Virus record (IMG/VR): IMGVR_UViG_3300036846_000738
Coordinates: 1 to 64,000 of that record
Strand: one strand, 5' to 3'
Origin: a virus
Length of the DNA: 64,000 nucleotides
Shown here: one piece after another, positions 3,546 to 59,576 of the stretch
Layout: each line of letters begins with the position of its first letter
How positions within the stretch are numbered: position 1 is the first letter of the stretch
Notes under the pieces: model-generated
Databases searched by the model: none
What the model was told of the DNA's origin: nothing
Seen by the model: only the letters and a program-made list of their open reading frames with translations
Translations under genes and position numbers: made by a program

Positions 3546-3588
3546 ATACGACCTATTGACATATAGGCCGTAATGACCTATATTGAGG
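3546..3588 (+). promoter_or_regulatory. Cassette repeat R1: sigma70 promoter with palindromic operator
   Basis: TTGACA 3556-3561, 17-bp spacer, TATATT 3579-3584; TAGGCC-GTAAT-GACCTA. Confidence 0.85.
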
Positions 3589-3609
3589 CTGTCAGAAAAA
3601 GGACACCTC

Positions 3610-3750
3610 ATGTGGACCACCAAGCGCTTCAAGTCACTCGCCGCGCAAAAGGCGTGGATCGCGGCCAACGAAGGCCGCTGTCAGATTGTGGTGCTGTTCG
3701 TAAACAACGGCTACGCGGTCGAGTACCGCAAGCTCCGGATCGTCGGCTGA
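3610..3750 (+). CDS. 46-aa cassette protein (not in ORF track)
   Basis: AAGGA RBS; MWTTKRFKSLAAQKAWIAANEGRCQIVVLFVNNGYAVEYRKLRIVG; TGATG overlap with next gene. Confidence 0.7.
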   Translation: MWTTKRFKSLAAQKAWIAANEGRCQIVVLFVNNGYAVEYRKLRIVG

Positions 3751-4268
3751 TGGCGCGGCTCTTCGAAATCCTGACCAGCAACGTCGAGAGCTGGGCACAG
3801 CTTGGCCATCCGTCGCTGCTCGAACGGTTCGTGCTGCGCAACGGCAAGCCCTACTCGCCCGGACCGCGCAAGGGCCTCAAGGGTCCGGCGAAGCAGTGCT
3901 ACATGAATGCCGCCAAGGTGGTGATGTGCGATGCTGACGCATCGGCCTATGTCGAGGGCTTTGTCGTCATAAAGGATTTGCCGATTCCGATTCTTCACGC
4001 TTGGGTCAGCTACGACGGCGAGACGGTGATGGACCCGACGCTGGACAGCGCGAACCGCGAATATTTCGGCGTCAGCTTTACCCGCAGGGAATTGGTCAGT
4101 GAGCTACGCAAGACAAAAGTTTATGGATTGCTCGATACCGGCCGCGGGTTCAACGCCGACTTGATGTTCCGGCGCGATCCAGAACTCAAGGCGATCTGCA
4201 ACGGCGTCAAGGCTGCAAGAGGTGTCGTCACCCAGCGGAAACTGGCCGAACTGCATACGACCTCTTGA
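3750..4268 (+). CDS. Hypothetical protein (KQCYMNA...VEG...HAW pattern, possibly transglutaminase/papain-like)
   Basis: Translationally coupled start; Cys...His-x-Trp...Asp-Pro-Thr pattern; stop codon lies inside the -35 box of R2. Confidence 0.65.
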   Translation: MARLFEILTSNVESWAQLGHPSLLERFVLRNGKPYSPGPRKGLKGPAKQCYMNAAKVVMCDADASAYVEGFVVIKDLPIPILHAWVSYDGETVMDPTLDSANREYFGVSFTRRELVSELRKTKVYGLLDTGRGFNADLMFRRDPELKAICNGVKAARGVVTQRKLAELHTTS

Positions 4269-4297
4269 CATATAGGCCGGAATGCCCTAGATTGAGG
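4255..4297 (+). promoter_or_regulatory. Cassette repeat R2
   Basis: TTGACA 4265-4270, 17 bp, TAGATT 4288-4293. Confidence 0.85.
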
Positions 4298-4317
4298 CTG
4301 TCAGAAAAGGACACCAA

Positions 4318-4497
4318 ATGGCAATGATCGGCACCAAAGACAAGCCCACCTACTATCGGATCGTGGGTTCGGTCAGCAAAACGGTTTTCGCTACAGCACC
4401 GGCTTCCAAGGTTCTGCCTCTCCACAAGAAACTTCAGAAGCAATACAACGGCGAAAAGCTGGAAATCGAGCTGATCGAGGACAATACGACCTCTTGA
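4318..4497 (+). CDS. 59-aa cassette protein (not in ORF track)
   Basis: AAGGA RBS; MAMIGTKDKPTYYRIVG...IEDNTTS; TGA lies inside the -35 box of R3. Confidence 0.7.
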   Translation: MAMIGTKDKPTYYRIVGSVSKTVFATAPASKVLPLHKKLQKQYNGEKLEIELIEDNTTS

Positions 4498-4526
4498 CAT
4501 ATAGGCCGGAATGCCCTATCTTGAGG
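4484..4526 (+). promoter_or_regulatory. Cassette repeat R3
   Basis: TTGACA 4494-4499, 17 bp, TATCTT 4517-4522. Confidence 0.85.
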
Positions 4527-5443: not shown

Positions 5444-5701
5444 ATGGCCAAGGTCCGCAAAAGAAAGGCCAAGGTCCGCAAACGTCGCGTGATCATCGCC
5501 GCCGGTCCAATGACCCACGAGCAGTACCGGCGAGCCCTGAAAAAGCTCGGCCTGACGGTCGCGGGCAAGGCCACCGCCAAGGCGCTCGGGCTCGGCCTGC
5601 GCCAGTGCCAACGCATCGCCGCGGGCGACGGCCCGGTCCCCGCGCCGGTCGAGCTACTCTTGAGGCTGTACCTCATTTATGGGCTTCCCGACGATGACTA
5701 A
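5444..5701 (+). CDS. Small HTH regulator, candidate cassette repressor 1
   Basis: MTHEQYRRALKKLGLT...GLRQCQRIAAGDGPVPAPVELLLRL; similar to 45743..45946. Confidence 0.7.
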   Translation: MAKVRKRKAKVRKRRVIIAAGPMTHEQYRRALKKLGLTVAGKATAKALGLGLRQCQRIAAGDGPVPAPVELLLRLYLIYGLPDDD

Positions 5702-10241: not shown

Positions 10242-10633
10242 TGGCAAAAGCGAAACGAAAAATCGACCCGCGCACGAAAACCGACGTCGACGCCACGATA
10301 GGCGTGCGCGTGCGAACCCGCCGCGTGGAGCGCCAAATGTCACAAGACGTTCTCGGCAAGGCCCTCGGCATCTCGTTTCAGCAGGTGCAGAAATACGAGA
10401 AGGGCGCCAACCGCATCACCATGTCGCGGCTGCAGAAGATCGCCGAACTGCTGGATGTGCCGATCACCTATTTCTATGGCGACGGCAATCCGGTGCGCAA
10501 AACAGAGGTTGACACGCTACTGTCGGGGCATGACGCGGCCACGATGCGGCTGTTGCGCGCCTACGCCGACATCAAGAATCGGGACACAGCGCACGCAGTG
10601 GTGACGCTGACTGAACTGATCGCCGGTGAATGA
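10241..10633 (+). CDS. XRE-family HTH regulator
   Basis: IGVRVRTRR...MSQDVLGKALGISFQQVQKYEKGANRI. Confidence 0.9.
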   Translation: MAKAKRKIDPRTKTDVDATIGVRVRTRRVERQMSQDVLGKALGISFQQVQKYEKGANRITMSRLQKIAELLDVPITYFYGDGNPVRKTEVDTLLSGHDAATMRLLRAYADIKNRDTAHAVVTLTELIAGE

Positions 10634-35964: not shown

Positions 35965-36040
35965 AGGATGTTCCTTTTCGGGTGTCTGTAGAGTTGAAGG
36001 GGTGAAGCCCGGCGCGCGGCCGGGCTTCGGGTTTGTCAAC

Positions 36041-38275
36041 TCACCAAGTAACGCCAGCGATCCACGCCACGACGCCGGAGCGCCGCATCGTCCAGTTCAG
36101 CGGCAGAATGAGCCGCAACGCCAGCGAGTCGGTCTGGAACATCGACATGGCCGGAGCTGCTACAACTGGCGGAGTGCCAACCGAGGCGAGCTGCAGCGGG
36201 TTGGTGTCTTCCATGTGCAGCGTGGCCTGATCACTGATCTCGAACCGCGGAGCATCGCCCGCGACCGAGACGTAGTCGGCCGCATCAAGACAGATCACTG
36301 TGCCAAGCGGCACCGTGCCGGACTGGATCAGCGGCCTGCCATTCAGTTTGCCCGCGTTGATTTCCTCCCGGAACGGGAACAGCCCGGACGGATTCGGCGG
36401 CTGAATGAACCCGATCGAAAGCGCCTGTTGCGGGTTCATGATGAAGACCATGTTGCGGATGTTTCCGTTGGTGGCCGTCAGAATGGCGCCGCTCAGTTGC
36501 TTGAGATCGCCGACGAGGGCAGCGAAGGCCCCGTTCGTGATCGGCGTGGGTGTCAGACCAGACACGCCGTTGCGCAGACCGGGCGGCCGAATCGCGGTCG
36601 CTGGGTTGACATCGAGCAAGACGGTGTCGATCGAGACCGCGGTGTCCTGCTGAATGGCGTCACGCAGCAGTCCTTCAATGGCGGGCACAGAGTGCTCATC
36701 CATCTCCCTAGTCCACGTCGATATGACGGCCATTTTCTTGGGCGTCAGCGTCTGGCTGGCGAACCCCGCCTGACGCACCGGAATCGGCGCGCCTTCGCCG
36801 ACGAACGATCCGGCGACGGTGGGGGTCAGATTGCGGGTCGGAATGATGATCCGACCATTGCGCCCGAAGCTGAGCTTCAGCCCCAGCGCCGACAGCGACG
36901 GGAAAACCGAAGCCGGGAGCAGGGTCGGCATCAGATCGGTGACAATCTGCTGCACCAGTTCCGCGGCCCAGCCCGAGACCGTGGTCATCGCCGGAGCGGA
37001 TGCCGCTTTCAGGGTCAGGTCGCAAACCGCCTTGGTGGCTTCGTCGTCGCCATAGATTTTCTGGCGGGCTTCGTCGATCGAGACGTTCATCGAGCGCGCC
37101 ATCGCGCGAACGGTGCCCGCCCGAACCAGAAACTCAAGCGGCTCCAACTTCTTCGGCGGCAGACTGAACGGCCGACGCTCGCCGTTCCGGAGGACGACGC
37201 TGTGGGTCGGCTGATGCTCATCGTCTTCGATGGATTTCGCCGCCCGGAGTTCGGATTGCTTCAGCGTGGTGTAGAGTTCGTCCTGATCGGCAATCCTCTT
37301 GTTGATTTCCTTGGTGGTTTCGAGATCGGCGTCGGTGACGTTGGCATCGTCAACCGCTTCCAGATGCGCCATCAACTGATCGCGCAATTGGACTAGCCGC
37401 TGTTCGCATTCCTGTATTCTTTTCGTGAGGGGTGACATTGTCCTGTTCTTTCTGACAGGAGACGTTTCGGCTTGCCCGCCGTTCGAACCGCGGCGACCGA
37501 CGACGCTTAGGTCTTTTTTGTTGCCTTGCTCGGCAAAGACCCTGTCGATGGTGTCACGGGAGATGTTGAGCGACTTTGCAATCGCTAATGCATTCGGATT
37601 GGCCGGGATCGCGACCAGTGAGGTCTCGACCAGTTCGGTTCGCTTGAAGCGCAGACCGTCGCCGTTCTTGGTCAGCGGCTCGGATTGCTTCGGCACAAAA
37701 CCGACCGACACGGCGCGCAGCACGTTCTGCTCGACCAGCGAGATGATCTCGTTGATCCGGGCCGACGTTCCTTTCTTGGCGAGCTGCAGATGGCCGCGCA
37801 GTGCGCCGTTGACGGTCCGCAAATTGCGCCATGTGCCGATCGGGAAATCGCTGCGGTGATTAAACAGCGCCACCGGGTTTTTCTTGAAATTTTCCAAATC
37901 CCAACCCTCGGCCTCGATCACATCGCCCATCCGATCCGGCGTCGCGTCGGACAACACAAATTCGAGACCGTTGCCTTCGGAGACGTGGGTCTTGTGCAGC
38001 ACCGCGCGGGCGCCAGTGCGCTCCTCCCATGCCAGTTGGCAGGCGTCCTCGTCGCCATCTTCGGCCATGCAACGATCCATGAAGTCCTCTTGGCTTTCGT
38101 CATCTTCCGGCGTGCATTGCTTGGTCAGGGCCTTGTCCTTGTTGCGCCAGATGTCGAGACAGATCGCGACCGCCTGATCCTGCGGACGCTTGCTGTCGCC
38201 GGTGCCGATCATCTCGGGCACACACCTCGCGCTGAACTCTGATTGGCTTTCGCCCGGCTTCGGTTTCATTGGCAT
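36041..38275 (-). CDS. Prohead protease-major capsid protein fusion (HK97 fold)
   Basis: DRMGDVI, NPVALFNH, SVGF, ETSLVAIPAN protease motifs, then coiled coil and VGEGAPIP...SMFQTDSLALR capsid motifs. Confidence 0.92.
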   Translation of the reverse strand: MPMKPKPGESQSEFSARCVPEMIGTGDSKRPQDQAVAICLDIWRNKDKALTKQCTPEDDESQEDFMDRCMAEDGDEDACQLAWEERTGARAVLHKTHVSEGNGLEFVLSDATPDRMGDVIEAEGWDLENFKKNPVALFNHRSDFPIGTWRNLRTVNGALRGHLQLAKKGTSARINEIISLVEQNVLRAVSVGFVPKQSEPLTKNGDGLRFKRTELVETSLVAIPANPNALAIAKSLNISRDTIDRVFAEQGNKKDLSVVGRRGSNGGQAETSPVRKNRTMSPLTKRIQECEQRLVQLRDQLMAHLEAVDDANVTDADLETTKEINKRIADQDELYTTLKQSELRAAKSIEDDEHQPTHSVVLRNGERRPFSLPPKKLEPLEFLVRAGTVRAMARSMNVSIDEARQKIYGDDEATKAVCDLTLKAASAPAMTTVSGWAAELVQQIVTDLMPTLLPASVFPSLSALGLKLSFGRNGRIIIPTRNLTPTVAGSFVGEGAPIPVRQAGFASQTLTPKKMAVISTWTREMDEHSVPAIEGLLRDAIQQDTAVSIDTVLLDVNPATAIRPPGLRNGVSGLTPTPITNGAFAALVGDLKQLSGAILTATNGNIRNMVFIMNPQQALSIGFIQPPNPSGLFPFREEINAGKLNGRPLIQSGTVPLGTVICLDAADYVSVAGDAPRFEISDQATLHMEDTNPLQLASVGTPPVVAAPAMSMFQTDSLALRLILPLNWTMRRSGVVAWIAGVTW

Positions 38276-38326
38276 CGCAAATTCCTCCACGCTTTCAGTG
38301 GGTTGGTATCATGTGCGAAAAGTCTG

Positions 38327-38369
38327 ATATGACCCCTTGACGTATAGGCCGAAATGGCCTACATCAGGG
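38327..38369 (+). promoter_or_regulatory. Cassette repeat R4
   Basis: TTGACG 38337-38342, 17 bp, TACATC; TAGGCC-GAAAT-GGCCTA. Confidence 0.85.
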
Positions 38370-38384
38370 TTGAAAGGAAACCTG

Positions 38385-39182
38385 ATGACGCTGTTCAATC
38401 GCCACGGCCAAGAACATCACGGCCCGCACGCGCTCGACGCCAAGGGCGCCGCCTACATCGTTCGCGCCCGGCTGTGCAGGCGGTGCGGTGGCGCTGGCGG
38501 CTCCGAGGCTTGGCGCCACACCGGCTACACCTGCTACGATTGCGGTGGCCGCGGGTCCTGCGGCACTGAAACCGTCAAGCTCTACTCGGCCGAGCAACTG
38601 GCGAAGCTGAACGCCCGCAAGGCCAAGGCGGACGCCAAGCGCGCCGCCGCCGCCAAGGCCAAGGCCGACAAGGCCGCCGCGGAAGCCGCGGCCAATGCGG
38701 AAGCCTTCCGCGCCGCGCACGCCGAGCTGATCGCCAAGTCGGCGCCTCACATGGCCAACGAGTTCATCGGCGACGTGATGGGCCGGGCGCTGGCGAAAAA
38801 CGACATCAGCGAAAAACAGGAGGCCGCGGTCCTCGCTGCGGTTGAGCGGATCGAGGCGCGGGCGGTCGTGGCCGCCGCATCCAACCATGTCGGCACGGTC
38901 GGCAAGCGGTTCGATGTCGCGGTCACGGTCGACCGGGTCGCCTCTTTCGCCCGGCCCGCGTTCCGCGGCTACGGCGCCATGGAAACGGTCTGGATCGTCA
39001 CCATGCGCGACGCCGACGGCAACGCGATCGTCACCAAGTCCTCGGTGTTCTCTCCGGAAAAGGGCGAGCGGTTCACGCTGCGCGCCACGGTCAAGGAGCA
39101 CTCCGAGTACAACGGCGAAAAGCAAACCATCGTCAACCGGGCAAAGATTATTGAGCCCGCAACAGGAGGAAGTGTGAAGTGA
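38385..39182 (+). CDS. Zn-finger plus OB-fold-like protein
   Basis: CRRCGG...CYDCGG; C-terminal VGTVGKR...ATVKEHSEYNGEKQT. Confidence 0.75.
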   Translation: MTLFNRHGQEHHGPHALDAKGAAYIVRARLCRRCGGAGGSEAWRHTGYTCYDCGGRGSCGTETVKLYSAEQLAKLNARKAKADAKRAAAAKAKADKAAAEAAANAEAFRAAHAELIAKSAPHMANEFIGDVMGRALAKNDISEKQEAAVLAAVERIEARAVVAAASNHVGTVGKRFDVAVTVDRVASFARPAFRGYGAMETVWIVTMRDADGNAIVTKSSVFSPEKGERFTLRATVKEHSEYNGEKQTIVNRAKIIEPATGGSVK

Positions 39183-39472
39183 TCAAGGTCAAATATTCCA
39201 GCGTCGACGGCTACCGCAAAGTGAAGTCATTCAAGACGCTCAAGGGCGCGCGCAAGTACGCGCAATTTATGATCGGCAAGAACCCCGACATGGGCAGCAG
39301 CTATGCCGTCAGCAACGACGGCATCGGCAAAATCGAAATCGGCGCCGGGGCCGCGCTGGCCGATTTGTTCGGCGACGAGCGCGAGGGCGAAGAGGCTCCC
39401 GGTTTCGACAGCCCGCGGGCGCCGGAATGGACTGGCTTCGATAGTTCCGAAATCGACATCACGGAACCGTGA
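39179..39472 (+). CDS. Hypothetical protein
   Basis: AGGAGG RBS; stop abuts R5. Confidence 0.7.
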   Translation: MIKVKYSSVDGYRKVKSFKTLKGARKYAQFMIGKNPDMGSSYAVSNDGIGKIEIGAGAALADLFGDEREGEEAPGFDSPRAPEWTGFDSSEIDITEP

Positions 39473-39473
39473 T

Positions 39474-39548
39474 ATACGTCCTCTTGACGTATAGGCCGAA
39501 ATGGCCTACATTAGGCCTGTTGGGAACGGGCGATTAGCGCCGGTTCCC
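39474..39548 (+). promoter_or_regulatory. Cassette repeat R5 plus leader hairpin
   Basis: TTGACG 39484-39489, TACATT 39507-39512; hairpin GGGAAC...GTTCCC 39522-39548. Confidence 0.85.
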
Positions 39549-39562
39549 GGAAAGCCCCAACC

Positions 39563-39721
39563 ATGAAACACGCCGTGATGACCCTCGCCGCCCTCGAAGC
39601 CGCGCTCTACGCGCTCTACGCCACGGCCAGCCTTGAAGAGGCGGTGCTCGCCTACCGCGCCGAGCTGGCCCACGAATACCGCGCCCGGACCGGAACTTGG
39701 TTTGCTGCCCGTTATTACTGA
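39563..39721 (+). CDS. 52-aa cassette protein (not in ORF track)
   Basis: MKHAVMTLAALEAALYALY...FAARYY; stop overlaps R6. Confidence 0.6.
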   Translation: MKHAVMTLAALEAALYALYATASLEEAVLAYRAELAHEYRARTGTWFAARYY

Positions 39722-39791
39722 TACGACCTCTTGACATATAGGCCATAATGGCCTACATTGAACCTGTAGGGATCGCGATGGTCGCGGCCCC
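39721..39791 (+). promoter_or_regulatory. Cassette repeat R6 plus leader hairpin
   Basis: TTGACA 39731-39736, TACATT 39754-39759; GGGATCGCGA-TGG-TCGCGGCCC. Confidence 0.85.
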
Positions 39792-39810
39792 GGAAAAACG
39801 AAAGGACCCC

Positions 39811-40251
39811 ATGTCCGAGTATGGAAGCCTCCGCGAAAAGATCGCGGCAGAATCGGAAGCCCGCAAGATCAAGTACGCGGCTTTCGAGGTGGCTTACGCA
39901 AAGGCCGCCGCGGCGGGCAAGGCCGCCGGTGAGGCCGCGATGCCTTGCCCGATGATCGTCCAACAGCGCGCGTCGCCGCTCAATGACAACTCGGTGGTGG
40001 TGCAGCAGTGGCGCGTGCCCGAGGGCATGTGCGGCTTTGCTTGGGTCACGGTCTCTCCCGGCAACTGCGCGTTCGCGAATTGGCTCAAGAAGAACAAGTT
40101 CGCCAGCAAGGCCTACGGTGGCGGCGTCCAAATCTGGATCAACGCCTTCAATCAGTCGGTCGAGCGAAAGGAAGCCTGCGCCAACGCGATGGCTGCGGTG
40201 CTGCGCGAAGAACTCGGCGTCAAGGCCTTTAGCGGTTCGCGATTGGACTGA
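39811..40251 (+). CDS. Phage hypothetical protein (CGFAWV...QS.ERKEA.A family)
   Basis: AAGGA RBS; GMCGFAWV, NQSVERKEACANA, C-terminal SRLD. Confidence 0.8.
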   Translation: MSEYGSLREKIAAESEARKIKYAAFEVAYAKAAAAGKAAGEAAMPCPMIVQQRASPLNDNSVVVQQWRVPEGMCGFAWVTVSPGNCAFANWLKKNKFASKAYGGGVQIWINAFNQSVERKEACANAMAAVLREELGVKAFSGSRLD

Positions 40252-40284
40252 CCCGACCCGTGGGGCGGCGGCGGCGAGCCCACC

Positions 40285-40365
40285 TAAAGCCTCGCCTGCC
40301 TAGCCTCGCCAAAACCCGGCCGAGCCCCGCCGCGCCTATCCGCACCTTGCCTCCGCCATCTTGCA
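40285..40365 (-). repeat. Short copy of the GG-pentamer array in the opposite orientation
   Basis: gcctc gcct gccta gcctc gccaa ... gcccc gccgc gccta ... acctt gcctc. Confidence 0.6.
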
Positions 40366-40393
40366 CGAAAGCTCGTAGAAACTGAAAGGAAAA

Positions 40394-40741
40394 ATGAAAA
40401 TGAAAGTCTACTCAAGCCCGATCCCGGCGCCGGAATATGACTACGCCAATTACGACCGCGACAAGGTCATGGCGGCAGAGGACGAGCATAGCGTCAAGCT
40501 CAAGGCGTGGCTGCTGGCCAACGGCTACAACGGCAAGCGCACCGGCGAGATCGCCAGCTTCCCGATCGCCGACGGCTACGCCTCCTACATGCTCGGCGAC
40601 GGCAAGAAGTCCTGCCTGATCCACCTGCCCTATGGCGACGCCTACAACTATCCCGACGTGCGGTTCCTGCCGAAGGCCGAAGTGCTCAAGCGGATCGACT
40701 CCAGCAAGCGCATGGCGGCCCTGTTTGCCAAAAAATCGTAA
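40394..40741 (+). CDS. Hypothetical protein
   Basis: AAGGA RBS; FPIADGYASY...HLPYGDAY; stop overlaps R7. Confidence 0.75.
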   Translation: MKMKVYSSPIPAPEYDYANYDRDKVMAAEDEHSVKLKAWLLANGYNGKRTGEIASFPIADGYASYMLGDGKKSCLIHLPYGDAYNYPDVRFLPKAEVLKRIDSSKRMAALFAKKS

Positions 40742-40811
40742 TACGACCTCTTGACGTATAGGCCACAATGGCCTAGCTTGAACTTGCAGGGACCGCGGTA
40801 GTCGCGGTTCC
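40741..40811 (+). promoter_or_regulatory. Cassette repeat R7 plus leader hairpin
   Basis: TTGACG 40751-40756, TAGCTT 40774-40779; GGGACCGCGG-TAG-TCGCGGTTCC. Confidence 0.85.
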
Positions 40812-40832
40812 GGGAACCTCGAAAGGACCCGA

Positions 40833-41036
40833 ATGTCTTGGAAATCGGAAGTGATCGCTGATAGCAGCGGCAAGTGGGCAGGCAACGCGCTGCGCTTCGC
40901 CACCAAGGAAGAGGCAGAGCGCTACGTCGGCGACCTCTCAATGCGCTGGCTGGCGGTGCGCGAAACCCGCGCGGTCGAGAGTGACGAGCCGGTCAACTAC
41001 GCCATCGTCGAAAACGTCCTCACGGCGCTGAGCTGA
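40833..41036 (+). CDS. Hypothetical protein
   Basis: AAGGA RBS; W.GNALRFATKEEAE. Confidence 0.75.
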   Translation: MSWKSEVIADSSGKWAGNALRFATKEEAERYVGDLSMRWLAVRETRAVESDEPVNYAIVENVLTALS

Positions 41037-41039
41037 TCG

Positions 41040-41234
41040 ATGGCCAGAAAACCGAGTGCAAAGAAACTGGCAGAGGCGCGGATCAACCGCGCCGTCGTCG
41101 GGTTCCAAATCCCGATGCTGTCAATCCCGAAACTGTATCGGGCGCTGGAAGCGGCGATCGCTCTCAACATGTCTGACGCTGAATTGAAGGCGGTGGTCGC
41201 CGCCTTCCCCCGCGTGATCACACTGGAGCAATGA
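41040..41234 (+). CDS. Hypothetical protein
   Basis: Operon packing. Confidence 0.6.
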   Translation: MARKPSAKKLAEARINRAVVGFQIPMLSIPKLYRALEAAIALNMSDAELKAVVAAFPRVITLEQ

Positions 41235-41235
41235 A

Positions 41236-41859
41236 ATGGGCTGGACCTTCTATCACAAGCCGAAGGGCATCAAGGCGATCGACGCGATCACGCGCGAGCT
41301 AGGCCCCGCCTTTATGGCACAGCGTTTCGTCGTCGCCTCGGCCACGATCAACGCGGTCCATATCGTCGCGAAATATCATGAGCCGGACAGCAAGGTCTAT
41401 GTCCCCGACGCCGACGGCATGGTGCGCGCAATCCTCGTGTTCAGCATCCGGAGCGTGCCAAAGGCCAAGGACGGCCACAACTTCGGCTACAAGGACATGG
41501 ATGAAGCCATGGGTCCTTACGGCTGCGAGTGCGCGCCCTCGATCATCGCCGCGGCCTCGCCGCTGCGCGATCCGATCGGACCGGAGCCGGAGTATTCGAG
41601 CCTGCGATCGGCGCGGGACTACCGCGAGCGCTCGCTGGCGATGTCCAAGGCCAAGGCCGCCAAGCGCGGCTTGAAGGTTGGCGCCAAGATCAAGCTGCCG
41701 AAACCGCTCTCGTTCTCCGGAATCCTGCTCGACGAGTTCGTCGTCGATCGCTGCCGGGTGCGCGGCCGGAAGGGCCAATCGACCGTGTTCCGGTCGGTCA
41801 AGACCGGCGGCCTGTACGGCCTGTCCGCCCGCGATCTGGCGGAGGCGGTGGTCTCGTGA
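41236..41859 (+). CDS. DUF6927-like protein
   Basis: MGW start; FGYKDMDEAMGP...C.P motif. Confidence 0.65.
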   Translation: MGWTFYHKPKGIKAIDAITRELGPAFMAQRFVVASATINAVHIVAKYHEPDSKVYVPDADGMVRAILVFSIRSVPKAKDGHNFGYKDMDEAMGPYGCECAPSIIAAASPLRDPIGPEPEYSSLRSARDYRERSLAMSKAKAAKRGLKVGAKIKLPKPLSFSGILLDEFVVDRCRVRGRKGQSTVFRSVKTGGLYGLSARDLAEAVVS

Positions 41860-42059
41860 CCGACAATCTCGAAACCGAACTTGAAGCGCTGATCGACCGT
41901 CACGGCCTGACGCACGTTGTCAACACCCTGTCGGTGATCTGCGCCGAGAAGGCCGACCACCTGATCGGCAATTGGCAGGACAAGAACGCTGCGAAAGTTT
42001 GGGCGGCTGACAGCCGCGTGCTCGACAAGGCCGCCCGCGCCATCCGATCCGATGGCTAA
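41856..42059 (+). CDS. Hypothetical protein
   Basis: GTGA overlap; LEALIDRHGL...ICAEKADH; stop overlaps R8. Confidence 0.7.
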   Translation: MTDNLETELEALIDRHGLTHVVNTLSVICAEKADHLIGNWQDKNAAKVWAADSRVLDKAARAIRSDG

Positions 42060-42101
42060 TACGACCCCTTGACATATAGGCCGGAATGGCCTATATTGAG
42101 G
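42059..42101 (+). promoter_or_regulatory. Cassette repeat R8
   Basis: TTGACA 42069-42074, TATATT 42092-42097; 9-bp arms ATATAGGCC/GGCCTATAT. Confidence 0.88.
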
Positions 42102-42119
42102 TTGTCAGGAAAGTAAGCC

Positions 42120-42650
42120 ATGACCCACTACCTAGTTACCAAAGCCCTCGCGTTCGCCACCAAGGCGCACGAGGGCATGTTCCGTAAATGGTCCGGCGAG
42201 CCCTACATTGAGCATCCCAAGCGGGTTGCCGTGCGGCTGTCGGCGCTGGGCTTCGGCCCCGAGGTGATCGCCGCCGCCTTCCTGCACGACGTGGTCGAGG
42301 ATACCGCGACGACCGGCGCCGAGCTGGCCGCCGCGTTCGGCCCGGCCGTCGCCGCGCTGGTCGCGGAGGTCACCAAGCCCATCGTCCCCGGTGGCAACCG
42401 GGCCGCCCGAAAGGCCGCCTTCCGGGCGCATCTGGCGGGCTCGTCCTACGCTGGCGCCTCGATCAAGCTGTCCGACGAGATCGACAACTCAAGCGACGTC
42501 GCGGAGATGAACCCGCGCTTTGCCAAGGTCTATCTGCCCGAAATGTGCGCGGAACTTGCGGTGCTGGGCCACGGTCATCCCGAGCTGGTCACCAAGCTGA
42601 CCGCCAACATCACCGCCGGATTGGCCAAGATCGCCGCTATGACGGCTTGA
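42120..42650 (+). CDS. HD-domain protein, small alarmone hydrolase (SpoT/Mesh1-like)
   Basis: AH...R..SGEPYIEHP, AAFLHDVVEDT, FG..VA.LV.EVT, IKLSD..DN. Confidence 0.85.
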   Translation: MTHYLVTKALAFATKAHEGMFRKWSGEPYIEHPKRVAVRLSALGFGPEVIAAAFLHDVVEDTATTGAELAAAFGPAVAALVAEVTKPIVPGGNRAARKAAFRAHLAGSSYAGASIKLSDEIDNSSDVAEMNPRFAKVYLPEMCAELAVLGHGHPELVTKLTANITAGLAKIAAMTA

Positions 42651-42679
42651 CATATAGGCCACAATGGCCTACATCGGGA
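42637..42679 (+). promoter_or_regulatory. Cassette repeat R9
   Basis: TTGACA 42647-42652 (contains the HD gene stop), TACATC 42670-42675. Confidence 0.85.
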
Positions 42680-42700
42680 GCGCAAGCAGAAAGGACCCCC

Positions 42701-42925
42701 ATGCCACGATATTACGACGACGACTATTACGACCGGGACTATGACAGCGAAATCGAGTTCGCCGATCCCGGCGGCCGGTCTGCCTTGCGCGCCGCCAGCA
42801 AGACCAACCCGCGCAACCTGCCCTGCCCCAACTGCGGCGCGAAGAACCGGCTGACGCCAGCCGATCGCGCGCTGGGCTACCAGTGCGATGCCTGCGCCGA
42901 TCGCGCCGAACGGGGACACGACTGA
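42701..42925 (+). CDS. Small zinc-ribbon protein
   Basis: AAGGA RBS; CPNC...CDAC. Confidence 0.75.
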   Translation: MPRYYDDDYYDRDYDSEIEFADPGGRSALRAASKTNPRNLPCPNCGAKNRLTPADRALGYQCDACADRAERGHD

Positions 42926-42926
42926 C

Positions 42927-43154
42927 ATGAGCGGTAAAATCAAAACCATCAAGCTGTCCTACCCGACGCCGAACTGGGCTCGTGATTTCGATCCCAAGGC
43001 GCCCGGCGCCGAGCCCAACGTCTACACAATTTTGCAGGTCACCGACTCGATCGAGTTCTCGCCCAAGCAGCAACTGCGCAAGGCACAGGTCGAAAGCCTG
43101 TGCGCCAGTCGCGAGTGGAAGGTGACCATCGTCCCGCCGCCGCCGAAAATATGA
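42927..43154 (+). CDS. Hypothetical protein
   Basis: Operon packing; stop lies within R10. Confidence 0.65.
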   Translation: MSGKIKTIKLSYPTPNWARDFDPKAPGAEPNVYTILQVTDSIEFSPKQQLRKAQVESLCASREWKVTIVPPPPKI

Positions 43155-43191
43155 CCCCTTGACATATAGGCCACAATGGCCTATATCAGGA
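43149..43191 (+). promoter_or_regulatory. Cassette repeat R10
   Basis: TTGACA 43159-43164, TATATC 43182-43187; ATATAGGCC-ACAAT-GGCCTATAT. Confidence 0.88.
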
Positions 43192-43212
43192 TTGAAAGAG
43201 AGAAGGACCCGA

Positions 43213-43572
43213 ATGAAGATTTTCACCAAAGACGTTGTGGCGCGACTGGCCGCCAATGGTCGCGCCACCCGACTGGCGCAGCAAGCTGGCGAGAGCGAGC
43301 CGGACCACAATCCGGTGCTCAAGGTGTTCAACCCGGCCGGAGCCGCCACATGGCTGCTGACCGAGTCCGACCCCGGTGATCCGGATTGCCTGTTCGGCCT
43401 CTGCGACCTCGGCATGGGCTCGCCGGAGCTGGGCAACGTGCTGCGCTCCGAGCTGGAAACCGCCAAGGGCCGCTTCGGTCTCGGCATGGAGCGCGACCGC
43501 TGGTTCAAGGCGGATAAGCCGCTGTCGGCCTACACCGCCGACGCCAGCCGCAAGCAACGGATCGACGCATAA
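43213..43572 (+). CDS. DUF2958-like protein
   Basis: PVLKVFNPAGAATWLLTE...LFGLCDLGMG.PELG...ERDRWF. Confidence 0.85.
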   Translation: MKIFTKDVVARLAANGRATRLAQQAGESEPDHNPVLKVFNPAGAATWLLTESDPGDPDCLFGLCDLGMGSPELGNVLRSELETAKGRFGLGMERDRWFKADKPLSAYTADASRKQRIDA

Positions 43573-43796
43573 TGGTCCCGAGCAAAACACTTGAAATCGT
43601 CGGCACCGGTCAGGCTGCCGCTCAAATCAGGTTCAAGGCGCACGAGAGCTACGCGCTCGACGGCATCGACTTGAACGACCTCGCCATCCTCGCCATCCGG
43701 CTCAACTCCCGCATGGTCGATGGCGACGAATTACGCGACTGGCAGAACAGGATCAACCTGATGCTGTCGAACGTCGCAACACAGGAAGGCAAATAA
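43572..43796 (+). CDS. Hypothetical protein
   Basis: TAATG overlap. Confidence 0.6.
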   Translation: MVPSKTLEIVGTGQAAAQIRFKAHESYALDGIDLNDLAILAIRLNSRMVDGDELRDWQNRINLMLSNVATQEGK

Positions 43797-44159
43797 ATGG
43801 AACTGCGCGAACCAAACTACCACGAGTTCACCCATCTGCCGCAGTGGACCCAAGCCATTTGGATCGGCAAGTCAGGCGACGGCAAGCTCGCGAATGAGTT
43901 CGACCCCTACAAGTGGTCGGGCGACAAGCCGCCGCCCGCGATCGGCGAAAAGATCAAGGTGCTGTGCAACGGCTTGGGCAAGGGCACGGTGCTGCGCTAC
44001 TTCGCCGAATATGGCTGGCTCGGCATGATCGTCCAGTTCGACAAGCCGCCGAAATGGTATCGGCAGCAGAACGGCGACAAGCCCGGCCACGTTTTCGGTA
44101 TCGACCTCAACCCCCGCAGCAAACTGCTGCCTCAACCTGCAAAGGAATCCCGTGTCTGA
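43797..44159 (+). CDS. Hypothetical protein (SH3-like beta barrel?)
   Basis: WSG..PPPAIGEKIKV..NGLGKGTV. Confidence 0.65.
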   Translation: MELREPNYHEFTHLPQWTQAIWIGKSGDGKLANEFDPYKWSGDKPPPAIGEKIKVLCNGLGKGTVLRYFAEYGWLGMIVQFDKPPKWYRQQNGDKPGHVFGIDLNPRSKLLPQPAKESRV

Positions 44160-44715
44160 ATATCTCTCCTGTGCCGAGACCGCCAAGCTGGTGCGTGCAG
44201 CACTCAAGAAGGCCTTCCCCGGCATCAAGTTTTCGGTGCGCTCACACGTCTACTCTGGCGGTGCCTCGATCAATGTCCGCTGGACCGACGGTCCATCGAG
44301 CAAGGCGGTCAAGGCGATGGCCGGGGCCTACTCCGGCGGCAACTTCGACGGCATGATCGACATGGCGTTTTCGAACTCGTCGTGGCTGATGCCGGACGGA
44401 TCGGCGGCGCTTGCTTCCTCGCCGGGCTCCACTGGCTCGATGGGCGTCTATGCGCCGTATGACCACAAGGCCCCGGCGCCCGGCGCCCGCAAGGTCCGCT
44501 TCGGAGCGGACTTCGTGTTCTGCGACAAGGACTGGTCGATCGAGACCTACACCACCGCGGCGAAAAAGGTCTGCGCCGATTACGGCGTCGAGCTGCCGGA
44601 GATCAAAATCAGCGGCGGCCCCTACATCGCCAACGTCTGGAGCATCAAGGTGCCCAACGCCGACACCGATCTCGGCACCCTGATCAACCGCGAATTGCAG
44701 CAGGAGAACGCATGA
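44152..44715 (+). CDS. LPD29-like (large polyvalent protein-associated) domain protein
   Basis: ETAKLVRAALKKAFPGIKFSVRS..YSGG.SI.V.WTDGP...FDGMID. Confidence 0.8.
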   Translation: MSEYLSCAETAKLVRAALKKAFPGIKFSVRSHVYSGGASINVRWTDGPSSKAVKAMAGAYSGGNFDGMIDMAFSNSSWLMPDGSAALASSPGSTGSMGVYAPYDHKAPAPGARKVRFGADFVFCDKDWSIETYTTAAKKVCADYGVELPEIKISGGPYIANVWSIKVPNADTDLGTLINRELQQENA

Positions 44716-45239
44716 CGCCGAACAATGACTACGGGCTGTTGATCGAGCCGATCAACCGCTACGGCGCCGAATATATCGATGCGCGCGTCGTGCGCCGCGA
44801 CCCGAAATACGAACACCCGATCGGCTGCCCCAGCGACGGCGATGTTTTCTTGGGCTACGGCACGCCGAAACATTTGCTTGGCTTGGTGCTGGACGGGCTC
44901 GGCATGTACGGTTTCGTCACCGACGGCAACGATCCCACCTTCATCGGCACTGAGATCGAATTTCGCGAGACCTACGGCATCAACGAACCCAAGCTGCGGC
45001 GGATGCTGAAAACGATGCGGCGCGTCAACGCCCGAATCGCCAAGGATCAAGCGCGCGAGCCGGGCGACAAATTCACGTCACTGGCCGCGGCGCTAAAGCT
45101 CTCGTTCGCGGTCGAGCGGATCGCCCGGCGCGGCGATGGCCGTGACTGGCGCTGGATGTCAATCGCCGAAGGCCGCAACCGCTACCGCGCCCTGATCGAC
45201 ACCGCGGTCGCCGCCGCCGTGTCGCGGAAGATCGCTTAA
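44712..45239 (+). CDS. Hypothetical protein
   Basis: AGGAG RBS, ATGA overlap. Confidence 0.7.
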   Translation: MTPNNDYGLLIEPINRYGAEYIDARVVRRDPKYEHPIGCPSDGDVFLGYGTPKHLLGLVLDGLGMYGFVTDGNDPTFIGTEIEFRETYGINEPKLRRMLKTMRRVNARIAKDQAREPGDKFTSLAAALKLSFAVERIARRGDGRDWRWMSIAEGRNRYRALIDTAVAAAVSRKIA

Positions 45240-45257
45240 CCCATGGAGAATACAGGA

Positions 45258-45614
45258 ATGACCAAATTCAAAATAATGCTGGCGGCAGCTTTGCTCGCTG
45301 CCAGCTCGCTCCACGCGCTTTCTGCTTCGGAGAAAGAGGAAGAGGTCGCCAGCCGATCTGCAGCAATCCTGCTACTGGCCATCAACAAGTGCGGTCCAAG
45401 CAAGTTCGACAGTCTTCGCGCGATGGACCAACTCGACACCGTGTACAGCGCGACCGGCGTCAACCCGGCCAACTATCCCGAGGGCGAGTGGACGCGGAAG
45501 ATTTTCTTCACCATGAGCCAGACGGATTTCCTGCGGAAAGTTCGCGACGACGATCCGCCGATGGTGAAAGCCTTCTGTAGTTCCATCGCCGAAAGGTTTC
45601 CAAACAAAGACTGA
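45258..45614 (+). CDS. Secreted/periplasmic protein with two Cys
   Basis: Signal peptide MTKFKIMLAAALLAASSLHALSA. Confidence 0.65.
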   Translation: MTKFKIMLAAALLAASSLHALSASEKEEEVASRSAAILLLAINKCGPSKFDSLRAMDQLDTVYSATGVNPANYPEGEWTRKIFFTMSQTDFLRKVRDDDPPMVKAFCSSIAERFPNKD

Positions 45615-45705
45615 CAACACGGGCGCCAACCGCCGGGGCGGGTTGATCTCAGGATCGCCCGCCCCAAACCTTATTTGCCACAACCCCTTAACCCACGGCC
45701 CATTC

Positions 45706-45734
45706 TTGTCTTTTTTGACAGAATGGCCTAGATA
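45706..45734 (+). promoter_or_regulatory. Promoter of the HTH gene carrying the right operator half-site
   Basis: TTGTCT-17 bp-TAGATA with AATGGCCTA in the same register as R1-R10; ATG lies 8 nt after the -10 box (probably leaderless). Confidence 0.65.
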
Positions 45735-45742
45735 AGTGATTC

Positions 45743-45946
45743 ATGATGACCGCCGAACAATATCGAGCCGCGCTAGAGCGACTGCAAATGACTCAGGTCG
45801 CCGCTGGCGAGCTGTTTCGCGTTGGTGCGCGAACCTCCCGGCGCTGGGCGCTGGACGAGGCTCGCGTTCCCTTCGCCGTAGCCGCATTGCTGCATTTAAT
45901 GCTAAAGAAGCGACTCAAGCCGCGGGATTTACTCGCGCTGGAGTAA
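45743..45946 (+). CDS. Small HTH regulator, candidate cassette repressor 2
   Basis: MTAEQYRAALERLQMTQVAAGELFRVGARTSRRWALDEARVPFAVAALLHL. Confidence 0.8.
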   Translation: MMTAEQYRAALERLQMTQVAAGELFRVGARTSRRWALDEARVPFAVAALLHLMLKKRLKPRDLLALE

Positions 45947-45953
45947 GCACACC

Positions 45954-46127
45954 ATGGCCAAGGAAAAAGAGGCCGCTCCCAAAATTCCGCCGACTGAGAT
46001 TCGCGACGGCAACGGCAACCTGATTCCGCCGGAGCATTTCGATGACGATCAGCGCCCGACTGGCGACGTCGACAAGTCGCCCGGCTCGCTCTACGACCAT
46101 CTGGTCCAGCGCGACAAGAAAAAGTAA
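45954..46127 (+). CDS. 57-aa hypothetical protein (not in ORF track)
   Basis: GGAG RBS; MAKEKEAAPKIPP...QRDKKK; stop directly abuts the convergent zeta-like gene. Confidence 0.6.
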   Translation: MAKEKEAAPKIPPTEIRDGNGNLIPPEHFDDDQRPTGDVDKSPGSLYDHLVQRDKKK

Positions 46128-47258
46128 TCACTTGCTCCGCGCGTGCAGCTTCGGCGACGAGCCCATGTTGTCGTAGACTTCCCAGTAATCCATGTCGTTG
46201 CGGTGACTGTCGAAGGTGTGTTCGTTGCTCACCGAACTCAGGGAATATTCCGGCGCCACGAACCGGCCCTTGCCGTTCTTCTCGTTGCCGTGGACGAAGC
46301 GCCCCAGTGCGCGCTCGGCGGCGGTCGCGGGACTGGCGTACATGTAGTGGCCTGAAATCTTGTAGCCCGCCGCCTTGTACTGCGCGATCCGCTTGGCGAG
46401 CGAGGTGTTGCTTTTCAGCGTCGCGTCGACGATGACGTTCAACTTGTTGTCGCGCGCGTACTGTTCCATCACCTCGCCGACGTGGCTCGCTTCCTCGTGC
46501 AGCAGCGAGGCGTTCCAGCCCTTGTATTCCGGCAGGCTTTCCTTGACGTCGTCGTTGTTGATGTACGCCGCCTTGCTGGCATCGACGGTGCCATTTTTGC
46601 CGGTGAACCAGCCCTTGCCGGAGCCGCCCCGGCCGCCAAGAATGTAGAGCGTTGGCTTCTCGCCCGCCGCTGGCGCCGCCGCCTTGACCACTTCCGGCGA
46701 CATCAGCTTGTCGACGATCTGCCGGTGAACCGGCAGACGGTCCGGCGCCCAGTGCCCGTTCGGCAACTTGTAGCCGCCCGCGCTTTGCTGACCGTCGGTC
46801 GGGAAGTCTTCGGACAATTTCTGGCGTGCCGCGGCGTCCTGCTCGCGGGAGCCCGGCACTTTCGCGTAGAGATCATCGAGCGTCACATCCTCGATCTTCA
46901 GCAGCGACGACGCCGAGGTCGGATCGCTGGCATGATCCTCACCGCCTCCGCCACCACCATCGCCGCTACTGAACTGGCCACCTTGCGGGCTGCCGCCGGG
47001 CTCGTGATGCGGATTGAACTTTTGCAGCAGCGCCTGCGACCGGCTCTTGGTGCGCGCCCATTGGCTCTTGAGCCGGGCCGCTTTCTGTTCGGCCTGCTGT
47101 TCGGCGAGCCACTTCGCGCGGTTGCGCGCGCGAATCGGCGTCATGATCTTTTGGTCGATCGGATAGTCGACCGGGCCGATGATCGCCGCGTGCAGATCGG
47201 CGTCCTGCATTGTGCCGTCCTCGTCGAGATAGAAAAATTCCTGACCTTTAGGCGGCAT
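46128..47258 (-). CDS. Zeta-toxin-like P-loop kinase with internal GGQF motif
   Basis: GGRGGSGKG Walker A, INNDDVKESLP, HEEAS, NVIVDATL, RALGR...GRFV; AGGAG RBS. Confidence 0.8.
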   Translation of the reverse strand: MPPKGQEFFYLDEDGTMQDADLHAAIIGPVDYPIDQKIMTPIRARNRAKWLAEQQAEQKAARLKSQWARTKSRSQALLQKFNPHHEPGGSPQGGQFSSGDGGGGGGEDHASDPTSASSLLKIEDVTLDDLYAKVPGSREQDAAARQKLSEDFPTDGQQSAGGYKLPNGHWAPDRLPVHRQIVDKLMSPEVVKAAAPAAGEKPTLYILGGRGGSGKGWFTGKNGTVDASKAAYINNDDVKESLPEYKGWNASLLHEEASHVGEVMEQYARDNKLNVIVDATLKSNTSLAKRIAQYKAAGYKISGHYMYASPATAAERALGRFVHGNEKNGKGRFVAPEYSLSSVSNEHTFDSHRNDMDYWEVYDNMGSSPKLHARSK

Positions 47259-58840: not shown

Positions 58841-59021
58841 GGGCAAAGCCGTTGTTGGTGGGGTGAATTGGTTGCCGCCAGAAACCAAGCTCCGAAGAGC
58901 TTTGCCGCCGATCGAGGAAGGCATTCAAATATCGGAGTTTCTGGCGGCGTTCGCGTTCGGGAAGGAGGCACCCGAAAGCGAATTGGGACTAGCTCCGCCA
59001 TTTCGGCTAGGTCACTTTGAC

Positions 59022-59576
59022 CTACCAATGGCTGCGCGATGAACTGGTCTGTGAATCGCGTCTAAGTGTTTCGCTGTGCGAACGCAATCTATTTCTGGGG
59101 GGTAGCTTGATCTCGGGCGCTAGGTCTGTGGTGGCTACCAGCAGGGTGACGTTCTGGCCGAGCATTTCGATCAGGACGCGCTCGCGGTCGCGGCCGGACA
59201 TTCCGGCGTAGATCACGACGCGGTGCTTGAGTGAGCCGCGCAGGATGGTGAGGCGCTGGCCGGGCGCGAAGCGCGGTGGCGGCGGGAGCTGGACCAGACC
59301 GCCGCGTTCCTTGGCGCGCCAGTTGGCGATGACCCCTCCGGAAATGCATGCCGGTTGGTCGCCGGTCTTGAGCAGGCAGCGGACGCCGACCGTGTTGGTG
59401 ATCGGGCTCCAGTCCCGCATTTTGGGAACAAAGAGGTATCCAGCGAATAATGCTGCGATGCGGCCTTTGGTGGTTTTGAAGCGAGGCAGGTAGGGATCGA
59501 GGGCTTTCAGGCGCTCGCTGACGAAGTTTTCGCGCTGCGGATGGGTCTGAACGATAAACCATTGATCTTGCAGCAT
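59022..59576 (-). CDS. NusG/RfaH-like antitermination factor
   Basis: WFIVQTHPQRE, LFAGYLFV, TVGV, KOW-like F.PGQRLTILRGSL, RVLIEMLG. Confidence 0.85.
   Translation of the reverse strand: MLQDQWFIVQTHPQRENFVSERLKALDPYLPRFKTTKGRIAALFAGYLFVPKMRDWSPITNTVGVRCLLKTGDQPACISGGVIANWRAKERGGLVQLPPPPRFAPGQRLTILRGSLKHRVVIYAGMSGRDRERVLIEMLGQNVTLLVATTDLAPEIKLPPRNRLRSHSETLRRDSQTSSSRSHW

Follow-up and report, generated by a model that had tools for sequence, protein, structure and literature searches.

The 64,000-nucleotide stretch analyzed here (the window; it spans bases 1-64000 of an IMG/VR virus record of 76,615 bp that is rated complete; GC 61%) contains ten near-identical early promoters of sigma70 type, CTTGAC-N17-CTAnAT, with the palindrome TAGGCC-N5-GNCCTA inside the spacer. 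Because its family co-occurs with this promoter in complete genomes and among 61 loci, the small helix-turn-helix protein HTH2 is very likely the cognate regulator of these palindromic early promoters, and it is probably a repressor; this reading draws on sequence features, predicted fold, conservation, and co-occurrence. We infer DNA binding by HTH2, the direction of control (repression, including autoregulation), and its timing from sequence, fold, and co-occurrence. The features first concerned are as follows.

3556..4522, plus strand: array 1, three promoters (-35 starts at 3556, 4265, and 4494)
5444..5701, plus strand: HTH1 gene, 85 aa with a K/R-rich N-terminal tail; a paralog of HTH2 with a different recognition helix
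38337..43187, plus strand: array 2, seven promoters (-35 starts at 38337, 39484, 39731, 40751, 42069, 42647, and 43159)
45743..45946, plus strand: HTH2 gene, 67 aa (alternative start at 45746), a small XRE-type helix-turn-helix protein; candidate regulator of the palindromic promoters

The arrays and their genomic setting

The public runs that contain the phage sequence are soil metagenomes. According to our own ORF calling, a plus-strand block (~0.9-11.6 kb) is followed by a minus-strand structural block (12.1-38.3 kb), a plus-strand island (38.4-46.1 kb), and, from 46.1 kb onward, minus-strand genes again, among them those for a Zeta-toxin-domain protein and a large repeat protein and a gene of TerL size. 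Genes on both flanks of the island are on the minus strand, and the island is therefore antisense to both neighbors. The order of opposite-strand 744-aa gene, island, HTH gene, and Zeta-domain gene is common to at least nine related viral contigs; a megablast search of 36000-46200 against the phage collection returned no match.

When up to two mismatches are allowed, TAGGCC-N5-GGCCTA occurs in 15 copies in the window, as compared with 1.27 expected. Ten of these, all on the plus strand, share ~45 bp of context and read AATACGACCTC-TTGAC(A/G)-TA-TAGGCC-N5-G(G/A/C)CCTA-nnT; three belong to array 1 and seven to array 2. Every array 2 promoter has the form TTGAC(A/G)-TA-TAGGCC-N5-GGCCTA-nnT; array 1 has the identical left arm and a right arm of either GACCTA or GCCCTA. 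The 17-bp dyad occupies the spacer and extends into the first -10 bases, with half-site centers 11 bp apart, or approximately one helical turn, and downstream of each promoter comes a leader of 20-50 nt that contains a ribosome-binding site of AAGGA/GGAG type. Read in the alphaproteobacterial register, CTTGAC-N17-CTAnAT, the array promoters agree with the sigma70 consensus reported for Sinorhizobium meliloti, CTTGAC-N17-CTATAT (PMC2873474). We considered whether the upstream AATACGAC box could be a T7-like promoter and rejected this, since the element amounts to a full sigma70-type promoter. We found no literature report of the motif, or of comparable promoter arrays, in alphaproteobacterial phages.

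Several further elements accompany the palindrome. At positions 38337-43187 of the window, and in related loci, a third half-site in direct repeat lies 5' of each -35, its first base 17 bp ahead of that of the left arm; the copies here are degenerate (ATACGACC), but those of other lineages are clear (TAGGGC). A conserved TTCGTGATA box stands directly 5' of this distal TAGGNC half-site in many versions of the module that have a single operon (L077-L086, L089, L124). Additionally, an isolated perfect dyad, TAGGTC-ACTTT-GACCTA, is found at 59008-59024 with no recognizable -35 or -10; it overlaps the stop of a gene for a NusG-like protein and lies upstream of an HNH gene, and it may be an extra operator or a roadblock on the late strand.

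The HTH2 gene, its promoter, and its product

The HTH2 locus comprises the following features.

45635..45665, plus strand: GC-rich hairpin with arms GGGGCGGG/CCCGCCCC, 3' of the last array gene; probable terminator
45697..45728, unstranded: imperfect inverted repeat, GGCC(C)ATTCT(T)GTC-N6-GACAGAATGGCC, over the -35 and spacer
45705..45734, plus strand: HTH2 promoter, with -35 (C)TTGTCT at 45705/6-45711, a 17-nt spacer, and -10 TAGATA at 45729-45734
45714..45730, unstranded: weakened operator, TTTGAC-AGAAT-GGCCTA; right arm and AAT identical to the array operators, left arm degenerate
45954..46127, plus strand: 57-aa ORF with GGAG 10 nt upstream; probably co-transcribed with HTH2
46128-47258, minus strand: Zeta-toxin-domain gene, convergent with the 57-aa ORF behind HTH2

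The last array gene ends at 45614, upstream of both the hairpin and the HTH2 promoter. The hairpin has a fold energy of -33.7 kcal/mol (z -2.66); a terminator scan left it uncalled, its tail being insufficiently T-rich. Since a strong GC hairpin separates the last array gene from the HTH2 promoter, HTH2 is probably a separate transcription unit that includes the 57-aa ORF, with the hairpin as the probable terminator insulating it from the array promoters. The 57-aa product is acidic and proline-rich and has no family match in Pfam or PHROGs; the ORF is kept behind the HTH gene in L011, L012, L014, L027, and L030. It ends back to back with the Zeta-toxin-domain gene (46125-46130), with zero intergenic bases between the two; early and late transcription must therefore collide at this point unless one is shut off.

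The initial annotation placed a promoter of the form TTGTCT-17-TAGATA 5' of HTH2, and the hexamers do lie there, at 45706-45711 and 45729-45734; in the alphaproteobacterial register the -10 reads CTAGAT. A strict E. coli-type promoter scan of 45200-46400 called no promoter. The 9-mer AATGGCCTA, described in that annotation as standing in the same register as the repeats, is present at 45722-45730, and its last TA forms the first two -10 bases, as in the arrays; eight exact copies occur in the window, seven in array 2 and one in the HTH2 promoter. The element had been taken for an operator half-site. Its right arm is indeed kept, but the site is better read as a full-length weakened operator; its left arm is TTTGAC, or nnGGAC in relatives. 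The inverted repeat proposed for 45697-45728 can be read as such, but only with two single-base bulges in its left arm, and it is absent from a gapless search; about half of the relatives retain its inner part, TTGTC...GACAR, and no other part of it recurs.

Fifteen related upstream regions yield an HTH2-type promoter consensus of CTTG....TTTGGACA.AACGGCCTA followed by TAnnnn. Relative to the arrays, this consensus has a weaker -35 (TTGTCA or TTGATT) and a left arm of nnGGAC or TTTGAC, the outer TA always being lost among the relatives, whereas the right arm and the preceding AAY are retained. A GGACA element is also conserved in this promoter type, and the dyad TTGTCC-N4-GGACAA is perfect in L010 and L027; neither is explained by the model in which HTH2 acts on the palindromic operator.

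The leaderless geometry suggested for HTH2 is borne out: the ATG at 45743 sits 8 nt past the -10, and the intervening AGTGATTC contains no Shine-Dalgarno sequence. An in-frame ATG lies 6-10 nt past the -10 hexamer, with no room for a ribosome-binding site, in 14 of the 15 relatives, and the arrangement is therefore conserved. Several homolog gene calls carry an N-terminal "extension" (e.g., LVIFDKMAYI) that is translated promoter. The ATG spacing, the absent Shine-Dalgarno sequence, and the conserved layout all fit a leaderless HTH2 mRNA.

The HTH2 ORF has a coding-type GC pattern and 31 homologs; a 40-aa antisense ORF favored by a crude gene caller was overridden. The AlphaFold2 model of HTH2 (from a 32-row alignment) is a confident five-helix bundle (pLDDT 95.5), and its five helices, with the helix-turn-helix at helices 2-3, place the predicted structure in the XRE/Cro-C1 superfamily. 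The best solved match identified by Foldseek is the Aca2 HTH domain (TM 0.80, rmsd 1.0, E 9e-3), and the nearest solved structural relatives are the autorepressors MqsA, Aca2, HigA2, Aca10, and Aca1; searches of viral predicted structures agree, with HTH_XRE proteins as the matches. Sequence comparison with Pfam recovered no family for HTH2 at E <= 0.01 (faint matches at E 0.016-0.017 lie below cut-offs), and no Pfam HTH model (HTH_3, HTH_31, or similar) was passed at its curated threshold; among 60 HTH2 relatives, sub-threshold matches were to MqsA_antitoxin (15), Xre-like-HTH (14), and HTH_3 (6). PHROG 14076, "transcriptional regulator", matched HTH1 at E 1.5e-5 and HTH2 at only E 0.0056. 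A comparison with Aca families had been proposed in the initial annotation; the HTH2 profile, queried against PDB chains, reached Aca10 at E 0.17, Aca1 at 0.27, and Aca2 at 0.42, which sets HTH2 outside these Aca families with solved structures by sequence (E >= 0.17). The HTH2 family itself is large, with 4,306 representatives at 50% identity having E <= 1e-3 and 753 having E <= 1e-10. A profile search of a one-genome-per-species bacterial set returned no relative, and no prophage copy was found there.

HTH2 is predicted to form a symmetric homodimer, with a score of 0.77 as compared with 0.02 for the best of three controls; the mark applied to this score is reached by 20 of 30 proteins solved as one-chain pairs and by 1 of 23 solved as single chains. 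Contacts agree to at least 95% between runs, and partner pLDDT is at least 91. As XRE/HTH dimers have already been solved, this result may reflect likeness to known structures and is not proof of dimerization. The predicted interface consists of helix 4 (residues 43-52) and the C-terminus and leaves free the recognition helix (29-36), which reads ARTSRRWALDE.

Association of the HTH2 family with the palindrome

Co-occurrence of HTH gene and motif across genomes, which had been put forward as a check on the pairing, proved strong for the HTH2 family and extends across lineages. For 29 of the 61 loci with a canonical recognition helix, defined as R[TQ][SAV]R[RK]W, the 1.5 kb upstream contains an exact TAGGNC-N5-GNCCTA. 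These loci hold 37 upstream sites in total, as compared with a shuffle mean of 0.08 (maximum 2) and with a single site in the 1.5 kb downstream; most lie 230-620 bp from the HTH gene, with one or two unrelated small ORFs between. The other 32 loci have no exact site within this distance. In array phages the reason is the greater upstream distance of the arrays; at other loci, e.g., L101, L105, L108, and L111, no site was seen. None of six loci with a differing helix (KTAQNY or RTGQNY) has a site, in what is a small sample.

Related phages carry three to eight promoters of the same type upstream of the HTH gene and on the same strand, and such same-strand arrays are present in L009, L011-L014, and L016-L019. 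Distant homologs (37-50% identity) occur in contigs that share no other gene with the window phage, where they lie 50-620 bp downstream of one full promoter-operator, either directly or with one or two small unrelated ORFs in between; a typical layout is TTCGTGATA-TAGGNC-GTA-TTGACC-TA-TAGGNC-N5-GNCCTA-TAT. Whole-genome scans, in which reversed-pattern controls gave no hits, are consistent with this association. Two complete and otherwise unrelated phage genomes, G015 and G018, were among those scanned. The complete 65-kb genome G015 has a single exact site in the whole record, ~420 bp upstream of its HTH gene; the only exact sites in the complete 140-kb genome G018 are two overlapping ones ~770 bp upstream of the HTH gene; and the 77-kb genome G013 has 13 sites in two clusters, as in the window phage.

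The association also holds in reverse. The exact 19-base promoter was found in 12 IMG/VR contigs, some of which share no other gene with the window phage; eight have a clear family member and one a marginal one (E 1e-4), while the remaining three are incomplete (two fragments cut near the array and one provirus rated 78% complete). In bacterial MAG contigs there were six matches, two of which look like chance, and the HTH gene lies within ~320 bp of three of the four real-looking sites: divergent at ~120 bp in a Hyphomicrobiaceae MAG and in the "Alphaproteobacteria BRH_c36" MAG, and 316 bp downstream in a Pseudovibrio contig. The closest cultured relative, Bradyrhizobium phage ppBeUSDA76-2 (L124, OP596614 37478-41843), has the same module; in this phage an unannotated 94-aa ORF (L124 1401-1683) lies between the operator-promoter and the annotated HTH gene.

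We looked for specificity covariation between helix and operator and found none. The recognition helix is nearly constant, whereas the inner arm dinucleotides vary both between and within genomes (CC/GG, GC/GC, CC/GC, AC/GC), and there is therefore no covariation signal to prove contact. The invariant TAGG/CCTA may be the bases read by HTH2. As the right arm overlaps the -10, part of its conservation reflects promoter function, and the co-occurrence itself could reflect transfer of the whole module instead of direct recognition.

We favor, with moderate confidence, a model in which HTH2 binds and represses the array promoters. The arrays would act as host-sigma70 early promoters, matching the alphaproteobacterial CTTGAC-N17-CTATAT, and a symmetric HTH2 dimer bound at the 17-bp dyad TAGGNC-N5-GNCCTA would occlude RNA polymerase. 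Occlusion would silence the early cassettes, whose direction here is opposite to that of the late genes on either side. Insulated by the hairpin and expressed as a leaderless mRNA from its own weaker promoter, whose operator has a degenerate left arm, HTH2 would continue to be produced under weak self-limitation. In simpler phages the same operator-promoter stands at the head of one operon, made up of one or two variable small genes and the HTH gene, in the classic autorepressor layout.

HTH1, cargo genes, and alternative readings

The initial annotation had each array followed by a related small HTH gene, the two products being the cognate repressors. The relatedness stands: the Smith-Waterman score of HTH1 against HTH2 is 76, as compared with 22.8 +/- 4.0 for shuffles, none of 2000 of which reached 76 (BLASTP gave no alignment between the two). 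The gene positions differ: HTH1 is the fourth gene of the operon transcribed from the last array 1 promoter, at 4494, has no promoter of its own, and is non-terminal, with many plus-strand genes following. Its start is most likely 5444, behind the GAGGAGGG ribosome-binding site, so that the K/R-rich tail is present; this tail (5444-5509) has 22 residues, is modeled with low confidence, and is found in 6 of 15 homologs and absent from the others. The AlphaFold2 core has pLDDT 86-91 and the helix order of HTH2, and Pfam returned nothing significant for HTH1. The HTH1 family (16 sequences) has a distinct conserved recognition helix, SLRQCQRIAAG, as compared with the ARTSRRWALDE of HTH2.

The reading with two cognate pairs would have HTH1 act on array 1 (GACCTA/GCCCTA) and HTH2 on array 2 (GGCCTA). 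It accommodates the HTH gene downstream of each array, the right arms that differ between arrays, and the differing recognition helices of the paralogs. However, the left arms are identical in both arrays, and the right-arm variants (GACCTA, GCCCTA, GGCCTA) occur side by side in single arrays of relatives in which the HTH2-type gene is the only one of the two. G013, with two promoter clusters, likewise has an HTH2-type gene only. Relatives of HTH1 are found without the motif: within 6 kb of seven HTH1-family viral loci there was no sign of even a one-arm variant, and the one true HTH1 orthologue among five related records, in G014, adjoins no such promoter. The differing helix, the motif-free relatives, the G013 arrangement, and the mixed right arms leave the idea of one repressor per array unsupported, and we regard it as very improbable. 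Cognate status thus holds up for HTH2, through fold, predicted dimer, and co-occurrence, but not for HTH1, which is a diverged paralog, presumably with another target.

Other regulators and the array cargo include the following.

10241-10633, plus strand: HTH_3 protein, a third regulator, 130 aa, canonical (E 1.4e-14)
41236-41859, plus strand: DUF6927 protein, array 2 cargo
42120-42650, plus strand: HD_4 phosphohydrolase (Pfam E 7.6e-16; phrog_990 E 4.5e-32)
43213-43572, plus strand: DUF2958 protein, array 2 cargo
44152-44715, plus strand: LPD29 protein ("large polyvalent protein associated domain 29"), array 2 cargo
59022-59576, minus strand: NusG-like protein, a further DNA-binding/regulatory candidate

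The HD_4 (RelA/SpoT-type HD) gene is kept in at least 14 related loci, and its product may be a phage alarmone or nucleotide-signal hydrolase. The Pfam names of DUF2958, LPD29, and DUF6927 link these domains to polyvalent proteins of mobile elements. Further array cargo comprises a zinc-ribbon protein and many ORFans. Scans with Pfam and PHROGs identified no named anti-defense family among the cargo genes of the window and of ten distant operons, and no validated acr gene in an operon with HTH2; ten cargo ORFs from the distant operons had no PHROG annotation. The suggestion that these HTH genes could serve as markers for anti-defense genes fits the variable small genes of unknown function that lie between operator and HTH gene, and the cargo would have an accessory, early, and possibly counter-defense role.

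Could another protein read the palindrome? If a host factor, the HTH_3 protein, or HTH1 did so, HTH2 would control its own promoter only, via the TTGTC...GACA repeat. The separate conserved element of the HTH2 promoter, TTGTCC-N4-GGACAA, perfect in L010 and L027, speaks for this possibility, as does the presence of further DNA-binding candidates in the genome. Yet the HTH_3 gene occurs in one of five related records and in neither complete one; both it and HTH1 are missing from G013 and G015 (complete, and searched), which have the operator, and HTH1-family loci elsewhere lack the motif. A host factor would not account for a site that stays within a few hundred bp of the HTH gene across diverse elements. 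We consider a different reader quite improbable, and regulators other than HTH2, such as the HTH_3 protein, are poorer candidates for the palindrome. Still less probable, in our judgment, is that HTH2 is an MqsA/HigA2-type antitoxin for a neighboring toxin and its promoter link incidental. The structural ties to MqsA and HigA2, the sub-threshold MqsA_antitoxin matches in 15 of 60 relatives, and the Zeta-toxin-domain gene that converges on the locus point in that direction; against them stand the lack of the MqsA zinc domain, the variation in adjoining genes from lineage to lineage, and an operon without a toxin-like partner, the upstream neighbor being a signal-peptide protein gene behind the hairpin and the downstream one the ORF for the 57-aa acidic, proline-rich protein.

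Promoter-plus-stem-loop cassettes have been described in T4-type phages, and the palindrome might similarly belong to a portable promoter cassette whose uniformity is maintained by recombination or gene conversion, with no dedicated repressor and with HTH2 as an ordinary early gene. The promoters are near-identical over ~45 bp, flanks included; L017 and G013 repeat even the central pentamer (ATTAC, in four of the L017 sites found), which suggests concerted evolution; and several cargo genes are conserved alongside the HTH gene. Such a process, however, would have nothing to recombine with at the single-copy sites of the HTH operon in the 65-kb and 140-kb genomes. The spacer sequence is also kept across lineages that share no other genes, and a dyad with half-sites 11 bp apart between -35 and -10 is unneeded for sigma70 recognition. 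We therefore view a cassette without a repressor as unlikely, and regulation of the arrays by HTH2 remains the reading that we prefer.

Known systems and significance of the module

By analogy, the logic of the system appears to be that of Aca repressors (PMC6765145, PMC8633003) combined with a Cro-like shut-off. The Aca proteins most comparable to HTH2 are Aca2, Aca1, and Aca10 (PMC6765145, PMC8633003, PMC9410881, PMC13551039); regulation of neighboring operons by one Aca, at up to three operons or motif sites, has been reported (PMC13551039). Shared features are the small HTH protein (a dimer, as predicted for HTH2) at the end of an operon of small variable genes and the inverted repeat in a strong operon promoter. 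In the HTH2 family the dyad, a putative binding site, lies in the promoter and is tightly linked to the gene. Unlike the Aca systems, HTH2 has no known acr or anti-defense gene with it (Pfam/PHROG scans) and no sequence membership in the Aca families with solved structures that were compared (E >= 0.17), and it is missing the C-terminal dimerization domain of Aca2. Ten operator-promoters in two arrays are present here, as compared with one to three for Aca, and in the lineage of the window phage the regulator sits outside the operon, behind a hairpin and with its own leaderless promoter. MqsA and HigA2 differ from HTH2, which has no toxin partner and no zinc-binding or toxin-binding domain.

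Phage lambda, with its Cro/cI logic and a leaderless cI mRNA transcribed from PRM, offers a further parallel. Like Cro and cI, the HTH2 system has a ~66-aa protein and 17-bp pseudo-symmetric operators of graded strength that overlap early promoters, and the HTH2 mRNA is predicted from its geometry to start at its own AUG, as that of cI does. In contrast to lambda, no divergent switch, second repressor, or integrase was seen in the window phage, the operators lie in the spacers of many dispersed promoters, and the protein belongs to another family. P1 C1, with dispersed 17-bp operators, and mycobacteriophage L5 gp71, with its stoperators, are lysogeny repressors that act at asymmetric sites. 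These share with the present system, as we read it, one small repressor and many genome-wide copies of one site, through which several transcription units are silenced; here, however, the sites are dyads inside consensus promoters, and the one-genome-per-species bacterial set holds no prophage copy. The novelty lies in the protein family and the operator that goes with it, in a scale of ten promoter-operators, and in a regulator promoter that is separate, weakened, and leaderless.

More broadly, and as a tentative proposal that we hold to be possible though doubtful, the operator-promoter and the HTH protein with its "RTSRRW" helix may constitute a previously undescribed, widespread, and portable early-expression module of alphaproteobacterial phages and elements, with cargo slots for counter-defense or host-takeover genes; the phage described here would have amplified it to ten promoters, with a timed shut-off protecting the antisense late genes. 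If that is true, hundreds of new early effectors would become searchable through the operator. Dozens of phages that are otherwise unrelated have a member of the HTH2 family next to the same palindrome, and the pair therefore offers a practical, if not unprecedented, way into early genes of unknown function.

The soil phages of Bradyrhizobium-like hosts are almost entirely unannotated, and the finding provides a defined candidate regulator-operator pair for them, with a cultured example in ppBeUSDA76-2. HTH2 is itself a conserved, predicted leaderless regulatory gene for study, and the arrays offer alphaproteobacterial genetics a small, naturally occurring series of graded promoter-operator variants. 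The operator offers a direct way to mark early transcription units and to list the small variable genes under the same control, and thereby a route to testing this cargo for counter-defense or host-takeover activity, a strategy that has been productive for anti-CRISPRs via Aca.
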